A stretch of 64,000 nucleotides of DNA from an uncultured Candidatus Bathyarchaeia archaeon (GTDB lineage Archaea > Thermoproteota > Bathyarchaeia > RBG-16-48-13 > CAYPFQ01), in assembly GCA_964473665.1 (NCBI GenBank), contig CAYYPV010000008.1, positions 607-64,606 on the forward strand, written 5' to 3'. Each line of letters begins with the position of its first letter. Position 1 is the stretch's first letter. Below the pieces are notes generated by a model. It saw nothing but the letters and a program-made list of their open reading frames with translations. It was not told the DNA's origin and ran no database searches. Below are positions 4,161-54,805 of this stretch, in pieces. The translations under genes were made by a program, and so were the position numbers.

Positions 4161-4187
4161 TTTTCATCCTCTCCGCCATTTACAGCA

Positions 4188-6026: not shown

Positions 6027-6028
6027 TT

Positions 6029-7165: not shown

Positions 7166-7323
7166 ACCCTATTTTTCCTCCAACAATTCTGAAAATTGGA
7201 TAACGTTTGTCATTTTTTGTCACTTTAAGGTATTTAATGCTTATCATCATTTGCAATACATCTTTTCGGATATTTAGAAAAAACATAACAATCATTAAAT
7301 TCATTTATGTGAGATACAAATCC

Positions 7324-21510: not shown

Positions 21511-21733
21511 CATTTTATCAGTTAAATCTACATTTTACCTTTCTTTGACTTTCTCGCCTTTGCCGTTGACAAATACATAGTATAAAAATGCTTCATATTT
21601 CAAAGTCAAACTTTAATTAGATGTATTAAAGGCGTAATATGCGTAATAAGTTGCGCTTCATCTTACCGTAAGGCATATAAATTAAAGTTAGTATGTTTGG
21701 TTTTAGCATTTTGAATATTTGGAGAGGATAAAT

Positions 21734-34505: not shown

Positions 34506-36872
34506 ATGAGTGAAAAGAAAGTTAGAGTCAAAGTTAAGGAGTTGAAGACAACTTTTGGGGTAATACAGGATTTAGAGTTGGTAATAGGCAAAGTTGTTGA
34601 GGAAACTTTAACTGAACCACAAGGTCCAACGCCTTATCCTTCAGTTGCGGACCTTAGGAACTGGGACTTCAAATTAATGCAGCGTTACAAGCCTTTCTAT
34701 TCACCTTTGTGCGATATGTGTTGCTTTTGCACCTTGGGTAAATGTGATTTATCTGGAAATAAGCGGGGAGCATGCGGTATTGATATAGGTACCCAGCAAG
34801 GTAGGATGTCGGTTTTGCTTTCGACAACAGGTGCGGCGTGCCACGTTGCGCATGCCCGGCACTTAGTTGAACATTTGATTAAAAAATATGGAAGAGATCA
34901 CCAAATTAATCTTGGAGAAGGCACTGAAGTTGAAGCGCCTGTAATTCGTTTGGTTTGCGGAATTAAACCTCGAACGCTCGGAGACTTAGAGGCTGTATTA
35001 GACTATGCAGAGAAACAGGTAACTAATGTATTAGCAACTTTTCATACGGGTCAAGAAGGAAGCTATTTAGACTATGAGTCAAAGGCTTTGCATTCTGGAA
35101 TGGTGGACCATGTTGGAATGGAGGTGGCGGATATAGCTCAGATTTCAGCATACGGCTTCCCGAAAGGTGACCCGAATGCGCCTCTTGTAGACATAGGTTT
35201 CGGAACTATTGATGTGAGTAAGCCTGTTGTTCTATGCGTTGGACACAATGTTGCGTCTAGTGTTGAAATTGTTGATTACATGAAGAAGAATGGGCTTGAA
35301 GATAAAGTTGAGATTTGTGGAATCTGCTGCACAGCCCATGACCTAACACGTTATCATGATCACGCGAAGGTAGTAGGGTCAATATCACAACAGATTAAGT
35401 TTGTTCGTTCAGGAGTGGCGGATGTGCTGGTGGTTGATGAGCAATGTGTCAGGACGGATATGTTGAATGAGGCTCAGAAAGTTAAGACGCCCATAATTGC
35501 GGTTACTGACAAAATATGTTTAGGTCTTAAAGATCGGACGAAAGATCCTGTTGATGAAATTGTAGAAGACCTCACTTCAGCTCATGTTCAAGGAGTTTTA
35601 ATTCTTGATCCCTTTAAAGCTGGAGAGGTCGCGGTGAAGACCGCGATTAAAGTGACTCCTATCAGGGGTAAGTTTAAGGCTATTCCAAGTAGAGAGCAGC
35701 TGATAGAGATAGCAAGAAGGTGTGGTAGGATTTGTAGATCCTGTAGGAGATCGTGCCCAATTGATCTACCGATAGATGAGGCTTTGGGTCTGGCTGCTGA
35801 AGGAAAAATGGAGAAATTGGCTGAGCTTTACGACCTTTGCCTTGGCTGCGTCCGGTGTGAAAGTGCTTGCAGATCCGGGATACCTATCGTAAGTTTGATG
35901 GAGAAAGCTGCTGAAGCAAAGATTAAGGGAGAAAAGTATAGGATGCGGACAGGTCGAGGACCAATTCACGACGTTGAAATTCGAAATGTAGGTTCCTCTA
36001 TTGTTTTAGGTGAAATTCCAGGAGTCATAGCGTTTGTAGGCTGCCCGAATTATCCTAATGGACCAAAAGAGCTTGCTGAGCTATGTCAGGAGTTTTTGAA
36101 ACGTCGATACATTGTGATTGCCTCCGGATGCTCAGCGATGGATTTAGCGATGTATAAAGATGAAGAGGGACAGACGCTTTATGAAAGATATTCTGGAAAC
36201 TTTGACGCTGGATGCTTAATCAATGTTGGATCATGTGTTTCAAATGCACACATTGTAGGTGCAACAATAAAGATTGCGAGCATTTTTGCTAGGAGACCAT
36301 TACAGGGTAATTATGAGGAAATTGCTGATTATGTCCTGAACAGAGTTGGAGCAGTATGCATAGCTTGGGGTGCAATGTCGCAGAAAGCTTACGCCATAGC
36401 TAGCGGCGCAAACAGGTTGGGAATACCTGTAATTTTTGGACCTCACGGCTCAAAGTATAGACGAATGTTTTTGGGAATAAAAGAAAATGAAAAAGATTGG
36501 AGGGTGTATGACGCAAGAACTGGTAACAAGACCTACATCGGCCCAGCTCCAGAGCACTTAGTTTATGTGGCGGAAACAAAAGAGGAGGCTATTGTCATGG
36601 CAGCTAAGCTGTGCATTAGACCTAATGATACTACTAAAGGAAGAGCTGTAAAGCTGACACACTACATTGACTTGCATAAAAAATTCTATGGAAAAATGCC
36701 TGATGACATACAATTGTTAGTTAGATCTGAATACGATATTCCAATCACAATTAAAGATGAAGTAAAGGATATTCTGAAGAATAAAAATTGGAAACCGACG
36801 CCTTCTCCGATTCCGGATCCGACTCTTCTTGATAGAATGATACGAAAAGGAAGAAGTGAGAAAGATGACTGA
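34506..36872 (+). CDS. cdhA: Acetyl-CoA decarbonylase/synthase complex subunit alpha (CO dehydrogenase catalytic subunit)
   Basis: CDMCCFCTLGKCDLSGNKRGACGI is the CdhA N-terminal Fe-S motif. Internal ferredoxin-like inserts CRSCRRSCP and CLGCVRCESACRSGIP are present. The protein is 788 aa. Confidence 0.95.
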   Translation: MSEKKVRVKVKELKTTFGVIQDLELVIGKVVEETLTEPQGPTPYPSVADLRNWDFKLMQRYKPFYSPLCDMCCFCTLGKCDLSGNKRGACGIDIGTQQGRMSVLLSTTGAACHVAHARHLVEHLIKKYGRDHQINLGEGTEVEAPVIRLVCGIKPRTLGDLEAVLDYAEKQVTNVLATFHTGQEGSYLDYESKALHSGMVDHVGMEVADIAQISAYGFPKGDPNAPLVDIGFGTIDVSKPVVLCVGHNVASSVEIVDYMKKNGLEDKVEICGICCTAHDLTRYHDHAKVVGSISQQIKFVRSGVADVLVVDEQCVRTDMLNEAQKVKTPIIAVTDKICLGLKDRTKDPVDEIVEDLTSAHVQGVLILDPFKAGEVAVKTAIKVTPIRGKFKAIPSREQLIEIARRCGRICRSCRRSCPIDLPIDEALGLAAEGKMEKLAELYDLCLGCVRCESACRSGIPIVSLMEKAAEAKIKGEKYRMRTGRGPIHDVEIRNVGSSIVLGEIPGVIAFVGCPNYPNGPKELAELCQEFLKRRYIVIASGCSAMDLAMYKDEEGQTLYERYSGNFDAGCLINVGSCVSNAHIVGATIKIASIFARRPLQGNYEEIADYVLNRVGAVCIAWGAMSQKAYAIASGANRLGIPVIFGPHGSKYRRMFLGIKENEKDWRVYDARTGNKTYIGPAPEHLVYVAETKEEAIVMAAKLCIRPNDTTKGRAVKLTHYIDLHKKFYGKMPDDIQLLVRSEYDIPITIKDEVKDILKNKNWKPTPSPIPDPTLLDRMIRKGRSEKDD

Positions 36873-37383
36873 ACCTTGGCAATTTGGAAATGTTCCAGGC
36901 AGGCTTCAGGCGAATTTGATAACGGACTCTAAGATTGTTGCAGCTTTTATTAAGAATGCAAAACATCCGATAATTGTTATAGGAAGCCAGACATTTGATA
37001 CTGCTCTAGGAAAAAGTGATACAGCTAAACTTATGGAGAAACTGCATGAGAATAATGTCCAAATGGTGGCGACAGCTAACATGAAAGAACTTGCAGAGGT
37101 AGGTTTCAGAGATACACCCTGGATGGGAGTAGTCGATATAACCAATAGGCTTACTGACTCAGCATGGATGGGCGTCGATGGAAGAGGACAATATGACTTG
37201 GTATTATTCATCGGAGTCATTTACTACTTACAATCGCAAATGTTATCTACGCTGAAACATTTTGCGCCAAAGTTAAAAACTGTAGCCTTAGACAGATACT
37301 ATCATCCAAACGCTAGCTGGTCTTTTTCACTTTCAGAGGATGAATGGCACAAAAATATGGTTGAATTAATGAACCAAATATAG
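36856..37383 (+). CDS. cdhB: Acetyl-CoA decarbonylase/synthase complex subunit epsilon
   Basis: 175-aa protein with the typical MTEPWQFGNVPGR N-terminus. It overlaps the cdhA stop. Confidence 0.85.
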   Translation: MRKMTEPWQFGNVPGRLQANLITDSKIVAAFIKNAKHPIIVIGSQTFDTALGKSDTAKLMEKLHENNVQMVATANMKELAEVGFRDTPWMGVVDITNRLTDSAWMGVDGRGQYDLVLFIGVIYYLQSQMLSTLKHFAPKLKTVALDRYYHPNASWSFSLSEDEWHKNMVELMNQI

Positions 37384-37427
37384 GAGAATAAAAGTGCCTA
37401 ACGCCTCTAATAGACACTGAATTTAGT

Positions 37428-38849
37428 TTGGTGGTAAGAGTGGTAGAAATAGGTTTAGGAATACCGGTTGATGTTGGAATTATACATGAAGGGGCAAGGA
37501 TTAGAGGCCCGGATATGTATATAGAGTTTGGAGGAGTGAATACCCAATTTAAATTTGAGCTTGTTCAGGTAAAACCAATAAAAGATGTTACTGACGGAAA
37601 GATCGAGATAATAGGGCCAGACATCAAAGACCTTAAAGAAGGCGGGACCTATCCGCTTGGAATTTATATTGAAGTCACCGGGGAAAAACTTGAGAAAGAC
37701 TTAGAGGGAGTTATCGAACGGTATATCCACGCTTACTTCAACTACATTGAAGGATTAATGCACATAAATTCACGATACGACATTTGGATAAGACTGAGCA
37801 AAAACTCGTACAAGAAGGGTTTAAACTCATTCAAGTTTATCGGATTAGTTTTACAGCGACTTTTCAAAGCGGAATTCCCGATAATTGAGAGCATGCAGGT
37901 AACATTCGTCACTGATGAAAATAAAGTTCACGAAATGTATTCCAACGCTGTGAAGATCTATGAAAAAAGGGACGCTAGAGCTAGGACTCTTAAAGATGAG
38001 GACGTAAGTGAATTTTATGGTTGCACTCTCTGTCAATCGTTTGCGCCTACGCATGTATGCATCATTACGCCCAACAGAGTGTCTCTATGCGGCTCAACAA
38101 ATTGGTTCGACGCTCGTGCCGCTGTCCGAATAAATCCTAAAGGCTTTAACTTCAAAGTTGAGAAAGGCGAATGCCTCGACCCTGTTAAGGGAGAATATGC
38201 CGGAGTAAATGAAAAAGTTAAGGAGAAGTCTCTTGGCGAAGTTGAGCATGTCTATCTCCACGCATTTATGGGGCATCCGCCTACATCTTGTGGCTGCTTT
38301 GAAGCAATAGCGTTTTATATACCTGAAGTTGACGGCGTCGGTGTAGTTAACCGAGATTATAGAGGCCCCACAGTAATCGGCACACCTTTTGCCTCATTAG
38401 CGGCGCAAACTGGTGGAGGAAAACAAACTGAAGGCCTCGTCGGAATAGCTGTAGAGTATCTTAGGTCACCGAAGTTCTTTCAAGCTGACGGAGGATGGAA
38501 TAGAGTAGTTTGGCTTCCAGCATCGGTAAAAGCGCGTGTAAAAAATGCTATACCAGTTGAGCTGATTGATAAGATTCCGACTGAAAATGACGTAAAGAAT
38601 CTTGATGAGTTAAAGAAATATTTGGAAATGCATAATCACCCAGTTGTTTCAGGCTGGAAAGCATCGGAGGTTCCGCTAAATGCTACATCAGTCATTGAAG
38701 ATACGAAGGGTTTGGTGCCAGTTATAGAGATCCCTGGATTGATTCCTTCAACTGATGTTCCTCCTGAAGGCTTTAGAATTGTGCTTAAGGGCGTCAAAAT
38801 TCATTGCGATGCTATAGTGATAAAGAAAGCGGAAAAAGAAAAAGAATAG
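37428..38849 (+). CDS. cdhC: Acetyl-CoA decarbonylase/synthase complex subunit beta (A-cluster acetyl-CoA synthase)
   Basis: The conserved A-cluster motif PTSCGCFEAIAF (CGCFE) is present. The protein is 473 aa. Confidence 0.9.
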   Translation: MVVRVVEIGLGIPVDVGIIHEGARIRGPDMYIEFGGVNTQFKFELVQVKPIKDVTDGKIEIIGPDIKDLKEGGTYPLGIYIEVTGEKLEKDLEGVIERYIHAYFNYIEGLMHINSRYDIWIRLSKNSYKKGLNSFKFIGLVLQRLFKAEFPIIESMQVTFVTDENKVHEMYSNAVKIYEKRDARARTLKDEDVSEFYGCTLCQSFAPTHVCIITPNRVSLCGSTNWFDARAAVRINPKGFNFKVEKGECLDPVKGEYAGVNEKVKEKSLGEVEHVYLHAFMGHPPTSCGCFEAIAFYIPEVDGVGVVNRDYRGPTVIGTPFASLAAQTGGGKQTEGLVGIAVEYLRSPKFFQADGGWNRVVWLPASVKARVKNAIPVELIDKIPTENDVKNLDELKKYLEMHNHPVVSGWKASEVPLNATSVIEDTKGLVPVIEIPGLIPSTDVPPEGFRIVLKGVKIHCDAIVIKKAEKEKE

Positions 38850-38855
38850 AGGTTT

Positions 38856-40043
38856 TTGCTGTTGGGTGAAGAGATAGATATTAATGAACAATTGGAAAAA
38901 TTAAGGAAAATTTTAAGAGAAAACAAATCTGTTGAAATGCAAAATGTGGATTTTTCTGCGAATGAGCTTGAGCTTCACATTAAACCAATGAAAGCAAATT
39001 CTACTTCACCTAGACCTAAACCTGTAGGATTGACAGAAGCTTCATTCACACCGCCTACAAAGAAATATGCTGGAGAAATAGTCGAGGTTAAACTTGGCGC
39101 GACAAAAAATGAAGGCGGTACGCGTGATAGAGTTCGAGTTATCGGTGGAGAGAAGGTTCCACCATTTTACAGATTTGAGACGACTGCACCGAATAAGCCA
39201 GTTATAGCCTTCGATGTTTTTGATATGAAGATACATCTCCCGAAACCTGTAAGGATGCATTTTGAAGATGTGCTCGAAGATCCCGCGGAGTGGGCTAGAA
39301 GATGCGTTGAAAAATTCGGTGCTGAAATGATTACGATACACCTCATAAGTACAGACCCATTAACTCAGAATACATCCGCAGCTAAAGCGGCTAAAACTGT
39401 TGAAAATGTTCTTCAAGCTGTAAAGGTGCCGATTGCAATTGGAGGATGTGGAAACCCTGATAAGGACCCTGAGGTTTTGGAGAAAGCTGCCGAAGTGGCC
39501 TCCGGCGAGAGAGTCTTACTTAATTCAGCGCGTAGAAATATGGATTATAAACGCGTAGCCAAAGCGGCTAATGCCTATGGGCATGTTGTACTATCGGTCA
39601 CCGAATTGGATTTGAATAACCAAAAAATGTTGAATCGAGAATTACTTGATGCGGGTGTATCGAAAGATAGAATTGTAATGGATCCTACAACAGCGGCTCT
39701 AGGCTATGGAATTGAATACAGTTTCAGTGTCATGGAAAGAATAAGGTTGGCTGGGTTGCTAGGGGATAAAGATCTGCAAATGCCTTTAGCTTCGGGTACA
39801 ACGAATACGTGGGCTGCTCGTGAGGCTTGGATGGAAAGTGCGGAGTGGGGTCCAAGGGAACTTCGGGGTCCATTGTGGGAAATAACTACAGGTCTAACTT
39901 TACTACTGGCTGGCTGCGACTTCTTCATGATGATTCATCCTGACGCTGTAAAAAGCGTTAAAGAAATAATCGAAGTTCTAGCGAGCGGCGCTAAGGGAAA
40001 ACCCCAAACAATTGGCAGTTGGGTTAATAAGAAGATAAGGTGA
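38856..40043 (+). CDS. cdhD: Acetyl-CoA decarbonylase/synthase complex subunit delta (corrinoid Fe-S protein small subunit)
   Basis: TIM-barrel corrinoid-protein-like sequence located between cdhC and the gamma subunit. 395 aa. Confidence 0.85.
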   Translation: MLLGEEIDINEQLEKLRKILRENKSVEMQNVDFSANELELHIKPMKANSTSPRPKPVGLTEASFTPPTKKYAGEIVEVKLGATKNEGGTRDRVRVIGGEKVPPFYRFETTAPNKPVIAFDVFDMKIHLPKPVRMHFEDVLEDPAEWARRCVEKFGAEMITIHLISTDPLTQNTSAAKAAKTVENVLQAVKVPIAIGGCGNPDKDPEVLEKAAEVASGERVLLNSARRNMDYKRVAKAANAYGHVVLSVTELDLNNQKMLNRELLDAGVSKDRIVMDPTTAALGYGIEYSFSVMERIRLAGLLGDKDLQMPLASGTTNTWAAREAWMESAEWGPRELRGPLWEITTGLTLLLAGCDFFMMIHPDAVKSVKEIIEVLASGAKGKPQTIGSWVNKKIR

Positions 40044-40044
40044 A

Positions 40045-41454
40045 GTGAAAATGCCGAAAGCCCGCCCACTCGAAATCTATGCGCTCATGCCGAAGAGTAA
40101 TTGCGGTAAATGTGGTGAATCAAATTGCATGGCGTTCGCGATTAAATTACTTGATAGATCAATAGAGTTAAATGCCTGCGTAGAACTCGACCAGCCTAAA
40201 TATAGGGATCAGAAGCAAAAGCTGACTGGACTTTTAGAACTACCAATTAAGGAGATAGTAATAGGTTCTGGCGAAAAAGCTGTAAAAATCGGCGGTGAAG
40301 AAGTGATGTACCGCCATGAATTGACGTACAATAATCCAACAGCAATTGCAATAGACGTAGATGATGAGATGACTGAGGATGAGTTACTTAGGCGAGCTAA
40401 AACTGTTGAAGAATTTCAGATAAATCGTGTAGGACAGATTTTGAGGGTAAATATGATTGCGATTAGGAACGTTTCTGGCCAAGCGGGTAAATTTGCTGAA
40501 GCTGTTTCATTCTTAGTTAAAAATTCTAAAATGCCGCTGATTCTATGCTCATTTGATGTTAATGTGTTGGAAGCGGGGTTAGCTGCATCCAAAGGTATGA
40601 ATCCTCTAATTTATGCGGCTACTAAGGATAATTGGCAGCGGGTGGGAGAGCAAGCGTTAGCGTATGACTGTCCTTTGGCAATTTTCGCTCCTAATGACCT
40701 GAAATTGCTCCGCTCATTATCCAGCTCCCTCATGGATATGGGTGTAAATAACTTAGTTTTGGATCCAGGGACATTCTCTGATGATGGACTGAGTGACACT
40801 ATAGATAATTTCACGATGTTGAGGCGGGCTGGAGTGGAGCTGGGTGACAAAAAACTAGGATTCCCCTTGATAGGAGTGCCAGCTACTGTTTGGGTTAAGG
40901 ATGGGAGAAAAAATGGATTAGATGAAATGAAAGAGTCGTATTTGGCGTCGATGCTACTTGCAAGATATGCGAGTATACTGATTATGCATAGTATTGATTC
41001 TTGGGCGCTTCTTCCAGTGCTTACCTTAAGGCAGAACCTCTATACTAACCCGAGGAAACCTGTGGCTGTGGAACCTGGATTAAAGAAGTTAGGAGAACCT
41101 GATGAAAACTCCCCAGTGTTGGTTACCTCTAACTTTGCATTAACATATTATACGGTGACAAGTGATATTGAGTCGACAAAAATTAGTTGTTATCTATTAA
41201 TAGTGGATACTGAAGGTCTAAGTGTTCAGACGTCTGTTGCAGGTAAGAAATTTACAGCCAGTAAAGTGGCTGATTTAATCAAGAGCACAGGAATTGAAGG
41301 CATGGTTAAACATAGGAAGCTGATAGTTCCAGGATATGCAGCCCGTCTTAAAGGGGATATTGAAGAGCTAACTGGCTGGGAAGTGCTTGTCGGACCAATT
41401 GATAGCTCAGGCATTTCTGCATTTTTAAAGGAAAATTGGAACCTGAAGGCGTAG
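40045..41454 (+). CDS. cdhE: Acetyl-CoA decarbonylase/synthase complex subunit gamma (corrinoid Fe-S protein large subunit)
   Basis: N-terminal [4Fe-4S] motif NCGKCGESNCMAFA. 469 aa. Positioned in the operon. Confidence 0.85.
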   Translation: MKMPKARPLEIYALMPKSNCGKCGESNCMAFAIKLLDRSIELNACVELDQPKYRDQKQKLTGLLELPIKEIVIGSGEKAVKIGGEEVMYRHELTYNNPTAIAIDVDDEMTEDELLRRAKTVEEFQINRVGQILRVNMIAIRNVSGQAGKFAEAVSFLVKNSKMPLILCSFDVNVLEAGLAASKGMNPLIYAATKDNWQRVGEQALAYDCPLAIFAPNDLKLLRSLSSSLMDMGVNNLVLDPGTFSDDGLSDTIDNFTMLRRAGVELGDKKLGFPLIGVPATVWVKDGRKNGLDEMKESYLASMLLARYASILIMHSIDSWALLPVLTLRQNLYTNPRKPVAVEPGLKKLGEPDENSPVLVTSNFALTYYTVTSDIESTKISCYLLIVDTEGLSVQTSVAGKKFTASKVADLIKSTGIEGMVKHRKLIVPGYAARLKGDIEELTGWEVLVGPIDSSGISAFLKENWNLKA

Positions 41455-41473
41455 AAGGGAGGGCTGATGCGTT

Positions 41474-42247
41474 ATGACTTCGAAAAGGGGAGTAGTTGTT
41501 ACTGTTACTGGGAAAGGTGGAACGGGAAAGACTACGCTAGTTTCCTTGATGCTGAAACTTCTTTTGAGGAATGATGGAAAGAAAATACTGGTTGTTGACG
41601 CTGATCCTGCTACAAATTTACCTGACGTTCTTGATGCGCCTGTGGCAGTAACTGTTGGAATGGTTGCTACTCAGCTTAAGAAGAAAATTGCAGGTGATGA
41701 AATACCTCCAGATATGGATAAGAAAAGTTTACTTGAGGGTTTGATAATGCAGGTACTAGTTGAAAAGCCTCAGTTTGACTTATTAGCCATGGGTAGGACT
41801 GAGGGGGAAGGGTGCTACTGTCTCCTCAATAATTTACTTACCGACATCATCGACACTCTCGCGAAGAACTATGATTTAGTTTTAATCGACATGGAGGCGG
41901 GTCTTGAACACCTGAGTAGAAGAACTGCACGCGATGTCGATGTGATGTTTATACTTACGGATCCGTCAAAAATGGGTTTTCAGACGGTAAAAAGAATAAG
42001 AGATCTTGTTAATGAAGTGCATATAAAATTTAAAAAGCTCTACTTGGTTGGAAATACATTTCCTGAGAGTGCTGTTGAAATGCTTAAAGAGGAGTCAGAA
42101 AATTTAGGCGTTGAGCTGGCAGGCATAATTCCAGCGGATAATAATGTTGTATTATACAATATTGCAGGTAAATCCTTGTTAGATCTTCCTAACGATTCAC
42201 CGGCATTTACTGCTGTTAAGAGGATTCTCGATAAAGCAGGATTTTAA
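41474..42247 (+). CDS. cooC: CooC/AcsF-type nickel-insertion accessory ATPase
   Basis: The Walker A motif TGKGGTGKTT is of the MinD/CooC deviant type. 257 aa. It is the last gene of the cdh operon. Confidence 0.8.
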   Translation: MTSKRGVVVTVTGKGGTGKTTLVSLMLKLLLRNDGKKILVVDADPATNLPDVLDAPVAVTVGMVATQLKKKIAGDEIPPDMDKKSLLEGLIMQVLVEKPQFDLLAMGRTEGEGCYCLLNNLLTDIIDTLAKNYDLVLIDMEAGLEHLSRRTARDVDVMFILTDPSKMGFQTVKRIRDLVNEVHIKFKKLYLVGNTFPESAVEMLKEESENLGVELAGIIPADNNVVLYNIAGKSLLDLPNDSPAFTAVKRILDKAGF

Positions 42248-42295
42248 GCGCAAATACGGCCCATAAGCTAAAGAGGTTTTTGATGTTTAGGCGCT

Positions 42296-43114
42296 TCATA
42301 AATTCCATCCTCTTGTTCTTAAAGCTCTAACTAGCGGGACACATACGATTGCAGCTATTAATGATTGAAAAATCCTAACTGCAGGATAATAAAGGGGACT
42401 AATTAAAAATAATAAACGAACTGCCTCAGTGGAGTATCCAAATATTCCTTTATACACAAATGGAAGCGCAAAAATTAAATTACCTACAGATGCATCCGAT
42501 TGATTTCCTACGAATGCTAGCAGAAAGAAAAATGCGAATGTGCGCTTTTGCGTCGTGGAAAATTTTTTAGCGATTAAGATTGTTGGAATGATCAGTAGCC
42601 ATGCTATTATTTTATCAAAGTTAGCAGCGATTCCTATGTAATACGTCGGAATTGTGTTTACTTTATGTACGGATGTTACTGTTCCATTCGCTATAAATAC
42701 ATACGAATTGATTGGTTGGCATAGTGGCGTAGCCCAAAAAGCTAAAGCCAAAAACCCGAGAACGATAAAGGCGACTATCCAACCGTTTTTGTATTTCGGC
42801 GATTCTGTTGACAGATTGCTACTCTTAAAAACGAATCCTGAAACCAAAGCATTCATTGGAGGGGACAGTAGGAAAGGCGCACCGAGAATAAAGCTACTTG
42901 GCGATAGTACCAAAGCGGTAACTGCACTCAGTAAAGCTGCGAGAAATCCTAAGTATGGACCGAGCATTATGCCGAAAATAGTTGCTATAGCTGCTCCTAA
43001 CCCGATTGTTGGTGCGGCAACGCCTAGGATCGGAATTCCTGGAAGTAAAGAGATAATGTAGTAAAACGCGACAAGAATAGCGATAAGAGATATTTTTCTC
43101 GTTGATAGCTTCAT
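42296..43114 (-). CDS. Polytopic membrane protein (possible ECF-transporter S-component-like)
   Basis: 272 aa with 6-7 hydrophobic helices and Gly/Ala-rich helices. The family assignment is uncertain. Confidence 0.3.
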   Translation of the reverse strand: MKLSTRKISLIAILVAFYYIISLLPGIPILGVAAPTIGLGAAIATIFGIMLGPYLGFLAALLSAVTALVLSPSSFILGAPFLLSPPMNALVSGFVFKSSNLSTESPKYKNGWIVAFIVLGFLALAFWATPLCQPINSYVFIANGTVTSVHKVNTIPTYYIGIAANFDKIIAWLLIIPTILIAKKFSTTQKRTFAFFFLLAFVGNQSDASVGNLIFALPFVYKGIFGYSTEAVRLLFLISPLYYPAVRIFQSLIAAIVCVPLVRALRTRGWNL

Positions 43115-43208
43115 AGGTTTAACCTAGTGTAGTTTTCTACATAGAGAGGCATTTAATTACATGGCATATTTATATGTTATATTTACTCGTTAGTTTGGAG
43201 CGATAAGT

Positions 43209-43700
43209 ATGGAAGAATTATGGCCTTACATTTTGCCATTACCGACAAAATCGACGCAACAATACAAAATTTTACTGTCGATCTTTAAATACAAAGCATC
43301 CCCGCAAATATTAAAGTCCATTTCAGTGGATAAACTAACTTATCAAAAGGACTTAATTAAAAAACTTCGTCCTTACTCTAACAAAACTGTCATTCAAAGT
43401 TTGAATACCCTAGTAGGCGCAGGAATTCTTGAAGAGGGAATGAAAAAAATTGTTATTAAAGGCAAGGGTGTTTGGGTTAAATGGTATAAACCTACCTCCC
43501 TTGGGAAGTGGCTTGTTCTATTCCTTATTCCACTAAAGCAAATTCCGCGCAATGAGGTAGAGAGAACTTTGAAGGAACTTTTTGAATTCTACGTTAAAAG
43601 CACCGTTAACTTCTGTGTAAATTATGGTATAGATCCTCAGTCCATAAAAAAGACCTTTGAAGAAACTTATCAACGAGCTGTGGCTGTGCACCTTGGATAG
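43209..43700 (+). CDS. Hypothetical protein, possible winged-helix domain
   Basis: 163 aa with a TVIQSLNTLVGAGILEE helix-turn-helix-like segment. Its 3' end overlaps the next gene. Confidence 0.25.
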   Translation: MEELWPYILPLPTKSTQQYKILLSIFKYKASPQILKSISVDKLTYQKDLIKKLRPYSNKTVIQSLNTLVGAGILEEGMKKIVIKGKGVWVKWYKPTSLGKWLVLFLIPLKQIPRNEVERTLKELFEFYVKSTVNFCVNYGIDPQSIKKTFEETYQRAVAVHLG

Positions 43701-44712
43701 AAAAAATGTAGGCCGTTTGAGGGCGGTTGAAGAAATTACGAATGCTGCTCAGCTTGCAGCCCTTTTAGAGGTTAGCGGCTGGCCTAAGCCGGGTAATGTA
43801 CATAGAACCGCTAATCTTCCCGATACGCGGTACGAGCATTTTCTCGCTGGAGCGGTTGCTATGGGTGCGGCTGTCAAAAATGCGGCTATCAGCGGAGTTA
43901 AAGCTGGCGAAGGCAAAATTAAGTTAGATGAAATAGGTGTTGGGAACCAAATTAAGAAGATGGTTTCTGACATTAAGAACTCGCATTTTGGAGGGAATAC
44001 TCACCTCGGCGTAAGTTTGCTTTTTATTCCCTTAGCTGCATCCGCTGGTAAAACTTATGTGGAAGATGATAAAATAGACGCAAAAAACCTTCGTAAAAAT
44101 TTAGAGCTTATTATGCGTTCGACAACTCCTAGAGATGCTGCCATGGTATACGATGCCATCCTGATGGTGAGTTCAGTGGAAGAGTTAGGTAAAATGAAGG
44201 ATGTGAAGAGCCCTGACCTCTACGATGAGAGCGCAAAGAGGAGGCTTCTTGAAAATAAGATTTCGCTTCATGAAGTAATGAGGGAATCCTCGAAGTTTGA
44301 TGACGATGCAAAAGAGCTGGTTACCGGGATGAGAACGTCTTTTGAAATTGGTTACCCTACAATTATAAAAGTTTTCAGAGAAACTGGTGACATCAATATA
44401 GCCACTGTGCACACTTTTTTGACAATTCTCTCAAAGTCTCCTGATACATTCATTGCAAGAAAAATTGGATTAAAAGAGGAGGTATATATAACTGAAGCAG
44501 TGATGGTCGGTAGGAAAAAGTCTAAGTGGATTTCGGAAACGGCTGAATCGATTCTTAAATTAGGCGGTCTAAAAACAAAGGAAGGAAGAAGAGCTCTTTA
44601 TGGGTTTGACAGATTACTTCATCGCGCTGGTGGTGAACTGAACCCTGGCACATCAGCTGATTTGACAGCGGCTTCTCTCTTTATCGCAATCCTATGCGGA
44701 TTGCGGTTTTAG
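43657..44712 (+). CDS. CitG family (triphosphoribosyl-dephospho-CoA synthase-like) protein
   Basis: N-terminal KPGNVHRTANLPDTRYEHF and C-terminal NPGTSADLTAASLF blocks match the CitG/MdcB family. Confidence 0.6.
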   Translation: MKKLINELWLCTLDRKNVGRLRAVEEITNAAQLAALLEVSGWPKPGNVHRTANLPDTRYEHFLAGAVAMGAAVKNAAISGVKAGEGKIKLDEIGVGNQIKKMVSDIKNSHFGGNTHLGVSLLFIPLAASAGKTYVEDDKIDAKNLRKNLELIMRSTTPRDAAMVYDAILMVSSVEELGKMKDVKSPDLYDESAKRRLLENKISLHEVMRESSKFDDDAKELVTGMRTSFEIGYPTIIKVFRETGDINIATVHTFLTILSKSPDTFIARKIGLKEEVYITEAVMVGRKKSKWISETAESILKLGGLKTKEGRRALYGFDRLLHRAGGELNPGTSADLTAASLFIAILCGLRF

Positions 44713-44766
44713 CTTTTAAAGTAAATTCCTATTTGAAATCACTTATTACTTCAACTTGCCATAACT

Positions 44767-45774
44767 TCAACCGTTTAGTTGTAGCGTTTTTTTAAGAAGT
44801 GCTATATCCAACTTTCCCGCATTATATTTTTTTTCTGTTTTAATGTCTGTGATTGTTACTTTAGCCACTGAGAAAAGTTCAGGGTCAATCTTATAGAAAT
44901 CGAAATTCGCCTTTTTTAGGATGTCATAGAATGGGATTCCGTATTCTTTTGATGCTGATGATGGCATGCGTGAAATTAATTTATCAATTTCCATTTTTCC
45001 TATTTCTGCTTCGTACCAAGCTTGGCCAGCTGCTAGAAGCATATCGTTAACGCGTCCCATCATCTGCGAATTATCAGAAACCACAGGCGCAATAGGAGCT
45101 AAACCTGTAGCGGATTTAACTTTTCTCACGTCGAAGCCCAAGTTCCGAAGTTTAAGCAGACCCGCTTCTACAGCCCGTCCTGAAACCTGTGTGCTTCCAG
45201 CTAGTGAAGTTGTTGGTGCGACTAGGACGTAGAGTCTTTTTGGATCCACATGACATGCTTTTGCAAGTTCTTTAAGCAGGCTGTCTGTTGGAGGAGCCGC
45301 TGATTCTAGGACTATAACGGCTACATTTGAGCGCTCACTGTAATTCAGCAGTTCATATATTTCACGCGGTTTTTCGGCTAAAATGCGGGCTGGACCGCTT
45401 CCCATTGCAAAATACTCTTCGCTTTTAATTTTCCATCCAGCCATCTGCGAACCTAGACATGCAATAGCAGGTGAATCAGTGGATACTGAGATTGCTGGTA
45501 GAGAATAGCTGTTGAAATGCATTTCAGTTAATCCAACTTTACCTAATCCGGCTAGACAGATCTCTGTTAGGCTTTTACCTGCCTCGTAACTACCTTTGAC
45601 TTTAATTCCGCAGTCAACTATTGTTGCACCATCACCGGATTTTTTTACCTCAATTTTTAGTTTGTCAGAATTATCGATCATCAGATCTACGAGTCTTTTC
45701 GCTTTAATATTTAAAGAGAATTGAGACGGATTTTTTTTTAGGTCAGGATTGTTTTCTTTGTTGTAATTGCGCAT
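44767..45774 (-). CDS. mch: Methenyltetrahydromethanopterin cyclohydrolase
   Basis: KIEVKKSGDGATIVDCGIKVKGSYEAGKSLTEICLAGLG closely follows the Mch N-terminal consensus. 335 aa. Confidence 0.85.
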   Translation of the reverse strand: MRNYNKENNPDLKKNPSQFSLNIKAKRLVDLMIDNSDKLKIEVKKSGDGATIVDCGIKVKGSYEAGKSLTEICLAGLGKVGLTEMHFNSYSLPAISVSTDSPAIACLGSQMAGWKIKSEEYFAMGSGPARILAEKPREIYELLNYSERSNVAVIVLESAAPPTDSLLKELAKACHVDPKRLYVLVAPTTSLAGSTQVSGRAVEAGLLKLRNLGFDVRKVKSATGLAPIAPVVSDNSQMMGRVNDMLLAAGQAWYEAEIGKMEIDKLISRMPSSASKEYGIPFYDILKKANFDFYKIDPELFSVAKVTITDIKTEKKYNAGKLDIALLKKTLQLNG

Positions 45775-45993
45775 TGTTCAGCCTTCCATGTATTTGCATA
45801 CATTTGCCTTTCCGTAGCTTTGATTGATATCTCACATAATCTATCTTACACAATAAGAGACATTTATCCATCTTGCTGCTTATGTTGGCTGATGTAGAGA
45901 GAATTCGAAGTAGGTTGTCTGAAGCATAATTGCGTAAAGTCTATATTAAGAGGAAATTATGAACATCAAATCACAGATTAGGAATGTTGGAGA

Positions 45994-46917
45994 ATGAAGG
46001 AAACACTGAAGGACGTAATAATTTTCTTAGATACTGACAAACATGTGAGCCCCTTTGATCAATTGATTATATCTGATAATTTCCCTAATGTCCAAATTTT
46101 TAATTACAGTCAAGTTGAGCCTTCGGAAGCGGCGACATTAATTCAGGATGCTATGTTTCCGCGAGGCCCTAAAGGCGCAGTTCACACGAAGATTTTCATC
46201 GGTGGATATGACATTGAAAAAGCTGAAGGAATTTTAAAAATTGCTAAGGCTACTATGTTTCCTCCATTTGAGTTGGCGATAATAGTTGACCCTAGAGGCG
46301 CGAATACAACCGCTTCAAGCATGGTGGCAAAGGTTTTTGAAAATTTAAGCAAAATAAAGTTCGGCGGATTTATCGGAAAGAAAGTTACGATCCTAGGTGG
46401 AACTGGACCTGTTGGTCAAGTTTGCGCAAAAATAATGTCGCAGGAAGGTGCTGATGTAACGATTACTTCAAGGCATATTGAGAAAGCTAATGCAACAACG
46501 GAGAAGCTGAGCGTTGAATCTAAAGCGGATAGGATTCGCGGAGTGCAGGTATCCAGCCTAGAAGAAGCGGCGAAGGCTGTTAGGGATGCTGAGATAGTTT
46601 TGGCTACGGGCTCTGCGGGTGTGCAGCTTTTACCCTTGAGCATTTTGAAAGAACAGGCGAAACAATGTAAAGTTGTCGCTGATGTGAACGCCGTTGCGCC
46701 TTATGGAATTGAGGGTCTCAATCCTAATGATGACGGAGCGGAATTTTCTACGGGTATTTTGGGAGTTGGGGCTCTCGCTATAGGTTCGTTAAAAAATGAG
46801 GTTGAAGTTAAGCTGATAGGTAAAGCGTTAGAGTCTCAAAAGGGAATATTTGATTTTAAAGTTGCCTATGAAATAGCTAAGTCCTTAATAAAATGGCCTG
46901 ACAGTTTGGTTTTGTAA
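45994..46917 (+). CDS. NAD(P)-dependent methylene-tetrahydromethanopterin dehydrogenase, MtdA/MtdB-like
   Basis: FLDTDKHVSPFDQ N-terminus and the GGTGPVGQ dinucleotide motif sit at the same relative positions as in methylotroph MtdA/B. The protein is 307 aa. Confidence 0.65.
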   Translation: MKETLKDVIIFLDTDKHVSPFDQLIISDNFPNVQIFNYSQVEPSEAATLIQDAMFPRGPKGAVHTKIFIGGYDIEKAEGILKIAKATMFPPFELAIIVDPRGANTTASSMVAKVFENLSKIKFGGFIGKKVTILGGTGPVGQVCAKIMSQEGADVTITSRHIEKANATTEKLSVESKADRIRGVQVSSLEEAAKAVRDAEIVLATGSAGVQLLPLSILKEQAKQCKVVADVNAVAPYGIEGLNPNDDGAEFSTGILGVGALAIGSLKNEVEVKLIGKALESQKGIFDFKVAYEIAKSLIKWPDSLVL

Positions 46918-46987
46918 TCAGGCGCTGGAGAATCGATTAACTAGCTTAATAAATCTTATATATGTTAAAGAATTTAGAGATATTGTC

Positions 46988-48031
46988 GTGAAAAAAATGG
47001 AAGAGGCAGAATCAAAATATCTTGCAGATCAAGAGAGAATCGCGTTAGCCGCAAAGATGTCTAAGCCTCAAGTCTGCGTTATAGGAATTGGAGGAGCTGG
47101 TTGCAATATTGTATCTTGGATAAAGCAGAAGGGAATGATTGGAGGCAAACTTATTGCCATAAACACTGATGCAAATCACTTATCCATTACTAAAGCGGAT
47201 AAACGCATTTTAATAGGTGAGAAGACCACCCACGGTCAAGGAGCCGGCGGATACCCTGAGAAAGGAGTAGCTGCAATTAAGGAAAATCTTGATGAAGTTG
47301 AAAAAGAAATAGCAGGCGCAAATATTATCTTCGTTGTGGCCGGTCTCGGTGGAGGTACTGGAACAGGTGCTTCGGCTGCATTAACCGAAGCATTAAAGGA
47401 TTCAGGTGCTTTACTCGTAGGAGTTGTCACATTACCATTCGCTATCGAGAGAGTTCGGATGGATACTGCAAGAAAAGGTATTGAGCGTCTTAAGAAGGCT
47501 TGCGACACGGTCGTCACTATTGATAATAACAAGTTAGTGAAAGTTGCTGGTGAACTGCCGTTCCAAGATGCCCTCGGCGTAGCTAACGAGCTTGTAGGAG
47601 TTTTCGTTAAGGAAATTACTGAGACAATAACGACTGCTAGTCTAATCAACTTAGACTATGCAGATTTAAGAACTATTATGGAGAAAAAAGGTATAGCTGC
47701 TATAGGATCAGGCTTAACCAAAGGAAAAGACAGAGTGGAAAAAGCGGTTAAGATAGCTCTGGAAGCACAGTTACTGGACATAAATGATGTCACTAAGGCG
47801 TTTGGAGTGCTGATTCATGTTTCAGGCGGAAAAGATTTAACACTTGAAGAGGTCTACCACTCGGGAGAGCTGGTCACGAGAGCGGTTTCACCCAAGTCGA
47901 AGATTGTCTGGGGAGCCAGGGTAAACCCCGAAATGAAAGGAGAAGCCCACGTATTCGTCTGCTTAACCGGTGTTGAAAGCGCATTCCTACTGCAACAAGA
48001 ACAGAGGCCTCGCCGCTTAAGAATCTTTTAA
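46988..48031 (+). CDS. ftsZ: FtsZ/tubulin family GTPase (FtsZ or CetZ-like)
   Basis: IGIGGAGCN G-box. GLGGGTGTGAS tubulin signature. T7-loop NLDYADLRTIM. Confidence 0.7.
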   Translation: MKKMEEAESKYLADQERIALAAKMSKPQVCVIGIGGAGCNIVSWIKQKGMIGGKLIAINTDANHLSITKADKRILIGEKTTHGQGAGGYPEKGVAAIKENLDEVEKEIAGANIIFVVAGLGGGTGTGASAALTEALKDSGALLVGVVTLPFAIERVRMDTARKGIERLKKACDTVVTIDNNKLVKVAGELPFQDALGVANELVGVFVKEITETITTASLINLDYADLRTIMEKKGIAAIGSGLTKGKDRVEKAVKIALEAQLLDINDVTKAFGVLIHVSGGKDLTLEEVYHSGELVTRAVSPKSKIVWGARVNPEMKGEAHVFVCLTGVESAFLLQQEQRPRRLRIF

Positions 48032-48332
48032 CTCCACATAAACTTCTGTTATTTTTGGTTTCCATTAATTCGTCAGTAGAGACCAAAAAAAATTGCTGGG
48101 CTGTATTTTCTATATTCTAATTTGGTTTTTACCGTGGCACATTCAAAAGACAGATCATTCTCCATGAGAGAAACCATGTTGACAAAGTTTTATCGTTATT
48201 AAGCACTCTTAATTTTTACTGAGTTACATGCTCCGACGAAAGGATGATACTCTGAGCATAATAGAGAAGTTTCCTGTGCGGCTAGAAAAATTTAAATAAT
48301 GTAAATTCTCAACTTAGAGTAAGGTAAGAAAA

Positions 48333-48656
48333 ATGTCCAAGAAAACTAAGAGTGCCCAGAAATCTAAGAAAGCCGAGATTAATGAAAGTGAATATTGGTG
48401 TACACCAACCGAGAGGATGTCTTGCTGCCAGATGGAGGGAGTGATAAGCGTAGATCAACGAGGACAGATAGCCCTTCCAAAAGAGCTAAGAGATAAGGCA
48501 AACATCCGGGCTGGCGATAAACTAGCGGTTATAAGTTGCGAAGAGGGAAAAACTTGGTCAATCTCTTTGACTAAGGCTGAAAATGTCACAAAAGGTTCAA
48601 TCGCGAACATTGATCTCGGGTATTGTATGGTTGCAGTAAAACCCAAGACTCGTTGA
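48333..48656 (+). CDS. SpoVT/AbrB (swapped-hairpin) domain protein with Cys-containing N-terminal region
   Basis: ISVDQRGQIALPKELRDKANIRAGDKLAV matches the AbrB/MazE swapped-hairpin consensus. A CxxxxxxCC region precedes it. Confidence 0.5.
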   Translation: MSKKTKSAQKSKKAEINESEYWCTPTERMSCCQMEGVISVDQRGQIALPKELRDKANIRAGDKLAVISCEEGKTWSISLTKAENVTKGSIANIDLGYCMVAVKPKTR

Positions 48657-49065
48657 AGAACGCCATAAAAGAATGCTTAAGCAGCTTATTGGGTTCGGAA
48701 TGAAGGATAAGTATCGGCGAACATGAAGTCTCATCTTTAAGTGTAACCAATTTTTGTGAATCATCTAAGCTTTTTCCATGAGTAATCTGCCAGGCGATTA
48801 TATGTCTGAACTTTGTAAGGTTCGGTTTAACTAAATTATCCTGACCAAAACTTTTTCCTCTTAATCATTATTCGAGCATTAACTCAGGAAATTGAAATGT
48901 TTTTCGTCTACAGATTTTCTAATATACTTAGCGTTAAAAGATACATTAAAATCTAGAGGCGCCTAATAACTGAGTGTACACTGTGATTTACCCTAAAGCG
49001 CATATTTGGCTATAATATTGCCTGATAGTTGCTAAAATTAACTAGGTAATTTGAGGACATAATCC

Positions 49066-49722
49066 ATGATAATAACTGAGTTGAAACCGCTAGAAGAGAT
49101 ACTGAGCGCTGTTAAGGGATACCAAAATGTGTTAATAGCTTCTTGCGGAGGCTGTGCCACAGTTTATAGAACCGGGGGGAGAACGGAGGCAGAGACCTTG
49201 AAGAGTTCACTTCAAGCTAAGGGAATAAAGTCAAATGTAGCTTTAGTTACACGCCAATGTAATAAACAGATGGTGGAGAGCACGCTTCGACCTTTGATTG
49301 GGAACTATGATATCGTGGTATCAACGGCGTGCGGAGTTGGGCCGCAGACCATATCCGACGTATTTAAAAGTGTCCCGATTTTTTCAGCTCAGAATACTAG
49401 GTTCATTTCTATGTATAATCCTGAAGTTGAAAAGTTTTCTGAGTACTGTAATGCGTGCGGTGAATGTATTCTTAATTTTACCGGCACTGTCTGCCCAATA
49501 ACTCGATGCGCTAAGGGCATGTTAAACGGTCCCTGCGGAGGACAAAGCAATGGTAAATGCGAGGTCGGCGGATGGAAGAATGACTGCGCATGGACACTAA
49601 TTTACGACCGATTAAAGGCTCAGGGCAAGCTGGATGCACTCAAGAAATTTACACCTCCAAGAGATTATCGTCATTCTAATAGCCCACGCCACATTTTGAG
49701 AGAAAGAAAGGAGACTGCTTGA
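49066..49722 (+). CDS. metV: Methylene-tetrahydrofolate reductase C-terminal-domain protein (MetV-like Zn/Fe-S subunit)
   Basis: Cys-rich motifs SCGGCAT, CNACGEC, CPITRCAKG and the diagnostic GPCGG are present. It lies immediately upstream of and overlapping metF. Confidence 0.7.
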   Translation: MIITELKPLEEILSAVKGYQNVLIASCGGCATVYRTGGRTEAETLKSSLQAKGIKSNVALVTRQCNKQMVESTLRPLIGNYDIVVSTACGVGPQTISDVFKSVPIFSAQNTRFISMYNPEVEKFSEYCNACGECILNFTGTVCPITRCAKGMLNGPCGGQSNGKCEVGGWKNDCAWTLIYDRLKAQGKLDALKKFTPPRDYRHSNSPRHILRERKETA

Positions 49723-50633
49723 TGGAGCAAATTTACAGCAGCCTGATGAAAAGTCTGAGTGATGGAAAATTCGTTTTCACCGGAGAAATTGAGCCTAGAA
49801 AAACTACTAGTTTAAATGAGATCATTGAAACGGCGAAAGTTCTGAAGAAATATGTTGTAGCAGCCAACCTAACCGACAACCCAGCTGGAATGGCTTTTAT
49901 GAACTCTCTTGTTCCATCATACATTATTCAAAAAGAAGTAGGCCTAGAGGCGGTTTACCAAATCACTTGTCGAGATAGAAATAGAATAGCGATTTTCTCA
50001 GATTTGCTTGCAGCTGGCGCCTTGGGAATTAAAAATGTCCTTGCAATAACAGGCGATCACCCTGCATTAGGCGATAACCCTCAGGCTAAACCTGTTTTCG
50101 ATTTAGACTCACAGCAACTAGTTTACATGATACGCAAGATGGTGGATGAAGGAGTTGATTTGACTGGACATAAAATAGAGAACCCTCCAAAGTTTCATGT
50201 GGGCGTAGCTGCATCACCAGCAGTTAAGCCGTTAGAACCTGAAATAATTAAGCTTGAAAGAAAAGCGGAGTTAGGAGCAGAATTTGTACAAACACAGATT
50301 GTCTATGATATAGAAGTAGCGAAAAAATTCCTAGCGGATACAAACCACATTAAGATTCCGATAATTATTGGGGTTTGCCCCCTAAAATCAGTGGGTATGG
50401 CTGAGTGGATGTCTAAAAACTTGCCAGGCGTAATGATTCCGAGTGAGCTGATTGATAGATTAAAAAAAGCTGAAGAAAAAGGTAAAGATGCAATAATGCA
50501 GGAGAATATAGCGATTTTTAGAGAATTCATAAAAGAACTTAAGAATACACGCGCTTCAGGAGCTCACTTGATGGCCGTCCATTATCCGATGACTGAATTA
50601 AACTTTCTTTTAAACGGCATACTAAGTGTTTAA
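49719..50633 (+). CDS. metF: Methylenetetrahydrofolate reductase-like protein
   Basis: ITCRDRNR and LAITGDHP motifs of the MTHFR TIM barrel. 304 aa. Confidence 0.75.
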   Translation: MMEQIYSSLMKSLSDGKFVFTGEIEPRKTTSLNEIIETAKVLKKYVVAANLTDNPAGMAFMNSLVPSYIIQKEVGLEAVYQITCRDRNRIAIFSDLLAAGALGIKNVLAITGDHPALGDNPQAKPVFDLDSQQLVYMIRKMVDEGVDLTGHKIENPPKFHVGVAASPAVKPLEPEIIKLERKAELGAEFVQTQIVYDIEVAKKFLADTNHIKIPIIIGVCPLKSVGMAEWMSKNLPGVMIPSELIDRLKKAEEKGKDAIMQENIAIFREFIKELKNTRASGAHLMAVHYPMTELNFLLNGILSV

Positions 50634-51415: not shown

Positions 51416-51488
51416 TATGTTTATCCTCACCAAATTTGTTCGCAACCGATATATGTCCTTATAGGATAACCCTTCAACATGAGGTTTA

Positions 51489-54790: not shown

Positions 54791-54805
54791 GTCTGTTTGT
54801 CCTCT

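Follow-up and report, generated by a model that had tools for sequence, protein, structure and literature searches.

The window analysed here is a 64-kb stretch of contig CAYYPV010000008.1 from an uncultured Candidatus Bathyarchaeia archaeon. It carries the cdhABCDE operon for the subunits of carbon monoxide dehydrogenase (CODH)/acetyl-CoA decarbonylase-synthase, a cooC-like gene, mch, a gene for a dehydrogenase of the MtdA/MtdB family (called MtdB-like below) and the gene pair metV-metF, whose products are called MetVF. The subject of this work is the pterin carrier on which MetVF is likely to act, tetrahydromethanopterin (H4MPT) or tetrahydrofolate (H4F). Gene identities were judged from Pfam and NCBIfam scans, with the scores set against curated cut-offs. 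The window contains 69 open reading frames (ORFs) of at least 100 aa; 60 of them were scanned with Pfam, and nine were not. Proteins of related loci, which are numbered with an L, were searched against the window by tblastn at E <= 1e-5. The scans confirmed the original prediction, made from the sequence by a model, that all of the genes named above are present (Table 1). The prediction had also stated that F420-type Mtd, Mer and Hmd are missing from the region. This agrees with our results: the families PF00296, PF01993 (F420-type Mtd) and PF03201 (Hmd) had no match in the 60 scanned ORFs, and tblastn with verified archaeal Mer gave no match anywhere in the window. Scans for tRNA genes and Rfam families gave no match either.

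The closest species representative is a Bathyarchaeia metagenome-assembled genome (MAG), L003, whose MtdB-like protein and MetF are 65% and 76% identical to those of the window. Beyond L003, the near relatives belong almost entirely to Bathyarchaeia. Nearer relatives, with 80–87% amino-acid identity, were found among JGI and Logan contigs (L001, L002, L088, L089), and one such contig spans 1.25 Mb. The named top matches of MetF and CdhA come from Bathyarchaeia and Baldrarchaeia, at about 58–65% identity. Judging from these matches, the host of the window is a divergent, uncultured lineage of Bathyarchaeia.

Table 1. Genes of the one-carbon region and its surroundings, with the model matches on which the assignments rest (positions within the window; bit scores against curated cut-offs where given).
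Gene or product	Position	Strand	Basis
cdhA, alpha subunit of CODH/acetyl-CoA decarbonylase-synthase	34506-36872	+	TIGR00314, 1179 bits vs cut-off 781; Pfam Prismane
cdhB, epsilon subunit	36856-37383	+	TIGR00315, 142.6 bits vs 101.2; Pfam CO_dh
cdhC, beta subunit (acetyl-CoA synthase A-cluster subunit)	37428-38849	+	TIGR00316, 620 bits vs 356; Pfam CdhC and ACS_CODH_B_C
cdhD, delta subunit (small corrinoid/FeS protein)	38856-40043	+	TIGR00381, 512 bits vs 253
cdhE, gamma subunit (large corrinoid/FeS protein, N-terminal FeS domain)	40045-41454	+	PRK04165, 597 bits vs 306; Pfam FeS and CdhD
CooC/AcsF-like P-loop ATPase, presumed nickel-insertion accessory protein	41474-42247	+	generic CbiA/AAA_31/ParA matches only
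S component of an energy-coupling factor (ECF) transporter	42296-43114	-	Pfam ECF-ribofla_trS
163-aa protein paired with the ECF S component	43209-43700	+	no family assigned
CitG-family protein	43657-44712	+	Pfam CitG, 215 bits; under every CitG/MdcB equivalog cut-off
mch, methenyl-H4MPT cyclohydrolase	44767-45774	-	TIGR03120, 399 bits vs 228.8, residues 20-331 of 335
MtdA/MtdB-family, presumably NAD(P)-dependent methylene-H4MPT dehydrogenase (predicted)	45994-46917	+	307 aa; Mpt_N (PF09176, 72.6 bits) and Rossmann domain
ftsZ, in the 2.15-kb insertion	46988-48031	+	TIGR00065, 327 bits vs 295
AbrB-family small protein (HgcC-like), in the 2.15-kb insertion	48333-48656	+	NF040962, 74.3 bits vs cut-off 70; TIGR01439 AbrB domain
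metV, cysteine-rich Fe-S partner of MetF	49066-49722	+	Pfam PF12225, 112 bits
metF, methylenetetrahydrofolate reductase (MTHFR)-fold methylene-tetrahydropterin reductase (predicted), archaeal ANME-1/Bathyarchaeota-type clade	49719-50633	+	PF02219, 129.7 bits

The five cdh genes form a single co-directional block (34506-41454), and all five subunits score above the curated cut-offs. CdhA is 87% identical to the CdhA of a relative (P0251). The ATPase that follows was labelled CooC-like because a gene of this kind also comes after cdhE in L088, L049 and L071. The MtdB-like protein aligned over residues 7-298 of its 307 with the NADP-dependent MtdA of Methylorubrum extorquens from the PDB (1LU9/6TGE), with E about 1e-43, and was 37% identical to a bacterial NAD(P)-dependent Mtd. 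It has the glycine-rich motif GTGPVG. MtdA is a bifunctional, NADP-specific enzyme that acts on both H4MPT and H4F; MtdB acts on H4MPT only and uses NAD(P). As to these two subfamilies, the match of about 37% to bacterial Mtd and the full-length match to MtdA are comparable, and NCBIfam gave no model covering the protein and none for either subfamily, so that the protein is assigned to neither. The surroundings of the MtdB-like gene were compared in 83 sequences, namely 80 species-representative loci, L001, L002 and the window. Within 10 kb of the gene, 41 of these sequences encode Ftr, 23 encode Mch and 18–19 encode Fwd subunits. Since many of the 80 species-representative genomes link the gene to ftr, mch or fwd, the clustering is not due to chance.

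The metV and metF ORFs share four bases. All 12 cysteines of MetV are kept across seven archaeal MetVs, as would fit several Fe-S (or zinc) sites; a structure comparison revealed no solved structure resembling MetV. In MetF, E23, D113 and Q193 correspond to E28, D120 and Q183 of the E. coli enzyme. In that enzyme, Glu28 is the proton donor that activates the methylene group, and Asp120 and Gln183 take part in pterin binding (PMC11094777, from which the residue roles were drawn). Among 120 sequences (the window protein and 119 homologues), the Glu and the Asp are invariant, and the Gln is kept in 119 and replaced by Asn in one. At the site of E. coli Phe223, most members of this clade have a residue other than Phe, and the alignment there is uncertain. 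The window MetF remains far under the cut-offs of the equivalog models for NAD(P)H-dependent MetF (88.6 bits vs 293.7 for TIGR00676 and 38.6 vs 382 for PRK09432). Purified bacterial MetVF contains flavin mononucleotide and Fe-S clusters and accepts reduced ferredoxin, but not NADH or NADPH (Öppinger et al. 2021, PMC8760232). Because the purified enzymes do not use NAD(P)H, this donor is plausible only for the MtdB-like step. By analogy, the electron donor of the window MetVF is probably reduced ferredoxin or an Hdr/MvhD-like module, and not NAD(P)H. Within the window, neither an hdr gene nor an HdrA/MvhD-like partner adjoins metVF.

In the relatives L001/L002, L089 and L003, the genes lie in a single co-directional cluster, fwdD-fwdB-fwdA, ftr, mch and fwdC-mtdB-like-metV-metF. 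The last four are translationally coupled; in L001 their successive overlaps are 4, 4 and 1 bases. Judging by its predicted products, the relatives' cluster covers each step from CO2 to the methyl-pterin, with the MtdB-like enzyme and MetVF filling the steps of the methanogen Mtd and Mer. On the 3' side of the cluster, the relatives and the window share the same genes, for an orotidine-monophosphate (OMP)-decarboxylase-family protein, a helix-turn-helix protein, DUF92, thioredoxin reductase, an HMGL-like protein and an ACT-HAD protein.

It turned out that other Bathyarchaeia carry mer in the place of metVF. In L007, mer overlaps the MtdB-like gene by four bases. In three species representatives the two proteins are fused within a single ORF of 639–649 aa, with the MtdB-like part N-terminal and Mer C-terminal (L015:10001-11920, L039:9992-11923 and L041:4628-6577). 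The Mer half of L015 scored 447 bits with TIGR03555 and 457 bits with PRK02271, both above the curated cut-offs. The MtdB-like proteins of these four loci are 52–55% identical to that of the window. Through its fusion to Mer, the MtdB-like enzyme is linked to methylene-H4MPT. The same chromosomal slot holds MetVF in some genomes and Mer in others, and this is the pattern expected of non-orthologous displacement. We found no description of the fwdC-mtdB-like-metV-metF operon, of the mer/metVF swap or of the MtdB-like::Mer fusion in the searchable literature, and we claim no priority for them.

We also compared ten archaeal contexts of MetVF: the window, L001, L089, L003, L085, L086, L087, L090, L091 and L092. 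Genes of the folate pathway (folD, fhs, glyA, purN) were found beside MetVF in none of the ten. L085 and L090 show the order fwdBAC-mch-flavoprotein-metVF-cooC-like. The flavoprotein of these two Bathyarchaeia is a 446-aa pyridine-nucleotide enzyme resembling CoA-disulfide reductase, encoded between mch and metV (L085:4806-6146, L090:4886-6226); in these two it might serve MetVF as an NAD(P)H-linked partner. In L091, two HdrA/MvhD-like genes are divergent from metVF, with ftr and a pair of the kind formed by the ECF S component and its 163-aa neighbour nearby. In L092, an HdrA/FlpD-like gene is followed by a fused MetV::MetF of 522 aa and then by a ferredoxin gene, and cdhCDE lies about 4 kb off. 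The neighbours in L091 and L092 suggest an electron-transfer partner of the Hdr type. In L086, metVF stands on its own.

The region is most likely an acetyl-CoA (Wood-Ljungdahl) gene neighbourhood with a module of the H4MPT type, in which the MtdB-like enzyme and MetVF replace the F420 enzymes. CdhABCDE, with the CooC-like maturation ATPase, would make or cleave acetyl-CoA from CO2/CO, CoA and a methyl group borne by H4MPT. Mch would interconvert formyl-H4MPT and methenyl-H4MPT. The MtdA/B-family enzyme, using a pyridine nucleotide, would stand in for the F420-dependent Mtd and reduce methenyl- to methylene-H4MPT. The flavin and Fe-S enzyme MetVF would then stand in for the F420-dependent Mer and reduce methylene- to methyl-H4MPT, taking its electrons from reduced ferredoxin or an Hdr/MvhD-like module and probably not from NAD(P)H. 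It is on the whole likely that MetVF acts on methylene-H4MPT and replaces Mer. This role is favoured because of the relatives' cluster, the presence of mer in the same slot and the lack of folate genes in the ten contexts. The identities of the genes, their linkage in the relatives' operon and the exchange of Mer and MetVF at one position are direct observations; the H4MPT substrate and the electron donor of MetVF and the cofactor of the MtdB-like enzyme are inferred from them.

The original prediction had proposed that NAD(P)H and a MetF-like reductase replace the F420-dependent steps. The part concerning a MetF-like enzyme on methylene-H4MPT is supported by the operon linkage, the mer swap and the missing folate genes. 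As for NAD(P)H, the proposal is plausible for the MtdB-like step only, and for MetVF the purified enzymes speak against it (PMC8760232). The prediction had called the route already proposed and unproven, and rightly: the same role has been put forward for the MetF clade of ANME-1, Bathyarchaeota and Asgard archaea (PMC9012536). This clade is common to ANME-1, Ca. Syntrophoarchaeum, Bathyarchaeota, Verstraetearchaeota and Asgard archaea, and it was proposed as a replacement of Mer (Chadwick et al. 2022, PMC9012536). The place of the window MetF in the published clade follows from its best matches and not from a phylogeny. Families of Bathyarchaeia without mer have been reported (PMC8407382). 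The hybrid route is thus a published, still unproven hypothesis, of which the window is a further instance.

Several points weigh against a MetVF that replaces Mer. We know of no MetF-family enzyme for which the use of methylene-H4MPT has been demonstrated. Every characterised MetF or MetVF uses methylene-tetrahydrofolate (PMC8760232). The Baldrarchaeia locus L087:6339-9158 (GCA_054386075.1) carries metV, metF and mer adjacent and co-directional, with a mer match of 500 bits to TIGR03555, and in L091 an F420-type MTD lies near metVF. Since MetVF adjoins mer in the one, an Asgard archaeon, and lies near an F420-type MTD in the other, its presence does not imply the loss of F420 enzymes. Moreover, Ca. 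Alkanophaga transcribes mer and metF alike (Zehnle et al., PMC10322722). In the relative L088, a divergent gene of the CofE/F420-ligase family with no counterpart in the window follows cooC (L088:17742-18587). It may hint at synthesis of F420, or of a related glutamylated cofactor, in the lineage, but with 70 bits against a cut-off of 181 it is ambiguous evidence. The ECF S component adjoining the cdh operon has a weak match to a folate family. Next, the FwdA, B, C and D and Ftr proteins of the relatives had no tblastn match in the window, though L001, L089 and L003 carry their genes at the homologous locus, and without fwd and ftr at the locus the route in the window organism may be incomplete. 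Finally, the genome was covered for 64 kb only, and mer, mtd, mcr, mtr, fwd, ftr and genes of F420 biosynthesis may lie outside the window.

Changes in the window locus were traced by protein and nucleotide comparison with the relatives. In the relatives, the first part of the gene order is tetraether lipid synthase (Tes), Ino1, ferritin, cdhABCDE, cooC, the CofE-like ligase, a 240-aa gene, the ECF S component, a 163-aa gene and a CitG-like gene. The second part consists of CBS genes, an HdrA/MvhD-like gene, an FeS protein, fwdDBA, V4R, mch, ftr, fwdC, mtdB-like, metV and metF. Absent from the window are the CofE-like ligase, the 240-aa gene, the CBS genes, the HdrA/MvhD-like gene, the FeS protein, fwdDBA, V4R, ftr and fwdC; for the HdrA/MvhD-like and CofE-like genes, too, tblastn gave no match in the 64 kb. 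Between Ino1 and ferritin the window has a block of about 30 kb (3468-33800), and its 80–87% identical relatives have no such block. A 2.15-kb ftsZ-abrB insertion (46912-49062) sits exactly at the mtdB-like/metV junction: in blastn, homology to the relatives stops at position 46911 and resumes at 49063, and in L001 this is a single contiguous point (~9342). Downstream, a block of ABC-transporter genes has been inserted (53516-56419). The window locus is a rearranged, shortened version of the cluster of its lineage. An independent ENA assembly matched window positions 42798-46791 with 99.8% identity and no gaps, and on ENA contig L093 an identical Mch protein has the same neighbours. Because an independent contig reproduces it, the arrangement ECF-S/CitG-like/mch/MtdB-like without fwd or ftr is real. 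A mis-assembly as the cause of the missing fwd and ftr is thereby ruled out for the mch junctions; this confirmation does not extend to the ftsZ/abrB junctions.

It is possible, although unlikely, that the locus is a remnant. Fwd and Ftr would have been lost, and Mch, the MtdB-like enzyme, MetVF and CODH/ACS would merely pass one-carbon (C1) units back and forth between the acetyl-CoA methyl group and the methylene/methenyl level, for biosynthesis or for methyl or formaldehyde assimilation. Such a loss would account for fwdDBA, fwdC, ftr, HdrA/MvhD-like and CofE-like genes standing at the locus in L001, L002, L088 and L089 (about 80–87% identity) and having no tblastn match in the window. Nucleotide homology breaks near the ends of the retained genes, the CitG-like/mch/MtdB-like junctions are seen again in the independent ENA assembly, and archaea are known in which part of the H4MPT branch was lost and remnants of it persist (PMC9635834). 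However, the region is heavily rearranged relative to the relatives, with the 30-kb block and the two smaller insertions, and the genes may have moved elsewhere in a genome of which 64 kb are visible. In addition, the retained genes are all intact and full length. We consider it quite improbable that the formyl-methanofuran end (Fwd, Ftr, HdrA/MvhD-like and CofE-like) was truly lost and not moved. This would have left a truncated F420-independent H4MPT module with MetVF as the sole methylene-H4MPT reductase, in which C1 units move from acetyl-CoA to the methylene/methenyl level or back. The membrane-bound group-1 [NiFe] hydrogenase of the 30-kb block would possibly drive this movement.

MetVF could also be, as in Methanosarcinaceae, an ordinary methylene-tetrahydrofolate reductase that provides methionine or other methyl groups for anabolism or serves a branch of the folate type, with a canonical Mer encoded elsewhere doing the H4MPT step. 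We regard this as rather unlikely. The folate substrate of all characterised enzymes (PMC8760232) speaks for it, and so do the folate-linked MetFV of the Methanosarcina type (PMC9012536), the folate-type Wood-Ljungdahl genes of some Bathyarchaeia (PMC8407382) and the mer gene adjoining metVF in L087. The ECF S component beside the cdh operon points the same way, but its match to the folate-family model TIGR04518 is far under the cut-off (33.6 bits vs 60). The same S component and its 163-aa neighbour go together with H4MPT/methanofuran clusters in Bathyarchaeia and other Thermoproteota (L036, L042, L055, L088, L091). Furthermore, neither the window nor the neighbourhood of MetVF in any of the ten contexts yielded folD, fhs, glyA, purN or folP. 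Three relatives show translational coupling of metVF with fwdC and the MtdB-like gene, and the same slot holds mer in other Bathyarchaeia.

A third possibility, that the organism has both reductases and uses each of them on methylene-H4MPT, with MetVF (ferredoxin/Hdr-linked) and Mer (F420-linked) as alternative entries by redox condition and nothing replaced, would fit the adjacent metV-metF-mer of Baldrarchaeia L087, the F420-type MTD near MetVF in L091, the transcription of both genes in Ca. Alkanophaga (PMC10322722) and the CofE-family ligase gene in the cdh cluster of a relative, but it is improbable: MetVF lies exactly where other Bathyarchaeia carry mer, neither the 64-kb window nor some 20 kb surrounding the relatives' clusters showed a mer, and the low score of the CofE-like protein leaves its cofactor uncertain.

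The genes between the cdh operon and mch also recur near H4MPT genes. The 163-aa protein had no match in Pfam or NCBIfam; in L074 its homologue stands alone, without the S component, by H4MPT genes. The CitG-family protein is 29% identical (E = 3e-19) to the product of a Phyllobacterium plasmid gene that lies beside mch, fae and NAD(P)-dependent Mtd, and mch is followed by a CitG-like gene in three clusters from bacteria (L077, L079 and L082). The CitG-family gene is a recurrent member of methanopterin/methanofuran (H4MPT) islands. Clusters of archaeal style, with MtdB-like, fwdDBA, ftr, fwdC and mch, were seen in the bacterial MAGs L077, L079 (Caldisericota), L080 (Anaerolineales) and L082.

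As for the inserted genes, ftsZ probably stands functionally outside the C1 module. The AbrB-family gene is possibly a regulator; its match is barely above the cut-off of NF040962, the model for the HgcAB-associated HgcC. Beside the ABC-transporter block lies a DUF72 fragment (56762-56974; 73 aligned residues, 60% identity), the copy of which is intact in a relative (251 aa); the fragment is probably a gene remnant. At 3468-8409, within the 30-kb block, the window encodes a membrane-bound [NiFe] hydrogenase of the group-1 type beside hypD, with a small subunit carrying a Tat signal, a large subunit and a cytochrome b. Three adjacent radical-SAM/SPASM genes lie beside geranylgeranyl-reductase-like genes at 9892-13609. 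A frameshift near 22350-22378 divides the thermosome (Cpn60/TCP-1) gene at 21719-23379 into two ORFs. The split would fit a one-base deletion in a G-rich run and could be an assembly error or a pseudogene. Two further genes were considered for a role in C1 metabolism. The radical-SAM gene 100-1647 had been a candidate methanopterin methylase by its Pfam 'HMPTM' zinc ribbon, and it proved to encode Tes (NF045702, 674 bits vs cut-off 450). The OMP-decarboxylase-family gene 50651-51547, a candidate hexulose-phosphate synthase of formaldehyde metabolism, best matched PyrF models, all under the cut-offs.

Metabolic models of ANME-1, Bathyarchaeia, Asgard archaea and alkane oxidisers, and with them the energy balance and electron carriers in these models, depend on whether a MetF-family enzyme can act on methylene-H4MPT. 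With the fwd-ftr-mch-mtdB-like-metV-metF cluster, the mer/metVF swap and the MtdB-like::Mer fusions, the window and its relatives give this role unusually clean genomic support, which does not answer the biochemical question. Compact gene sets such as those of L001 or L003 could be expressed for direct assay, and the main value of the locus is as a guide to such an assay.

Like the MetF of the ANME-1/Bathyarchaeota type, for which the same role was proposed, the window MetF is paired with MetV among H4MPT genes without folate genes, and its best named homologues are those of Bathyarchaeia and Baldrarchaeia (58–65%). In contrast to that type, the window and three relatives pair it with an MtdA/B-family dehydrogenase and not with F420-type Mtd. 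With the MetVF of acetogens such as Clostridium ljungdahlii and Thermoanaerobacter kivui (PMC8760232) it shares the two-gene metV-metF, the MTHFR barrel including its catalytic Glu, Asp and Gln and the cysteine-rich MetV. However, its context is methanofuran/H4MPT and not folate, its carrier is probably H4MPT, and it has no adjoining hdr. The metFV-hdrCBA-mvhD cluster of Moorella resembles the other archaeal metVF loci that stand beside HdrA/MvhD-like genes (L091, L092), and L001 also echoes it.

The MtdB-like enzyme resembles methylotroph MtdA/MtdB, such as Methylorubrum extorquens MtdA (1LU9/6TGE), in its full-length homology, its Mpt_N and Rossmann domains and its GTGPVG motif, and in both domains of life the gene lies within islands of the fwd/fhc-ftr-mch-CitG type. 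Unlike the methylotroph enzymes, it is known from sequence alone and presumably works in a reductive or bidirectional acetyl-CoA pathway and not in formaldehyde oxidation. Compared with the methyl branch of methanogens and Archaeoglobus (Fwd, Ftr, Mch, F420-Mtd and F420-Mer, leading to CdhABCDE), the Cdh complex and Mch of the window are canonical, and the relatives carry Fwd and Ftr in the same cluster. The window differs in having no F420-type Mtd, Mer or Hmd and no fwd or ftr, and both reductive steps would be carried out by non-orthologous enzymes. Within Bathyarchaeia, the MtdB-like::Mer fusions and mer-mtdB-like pairs (L015, L039, L041, L007) use the same MtdB-like family, with an F420-dependent Mer where the window lineage has MetV-MetF.

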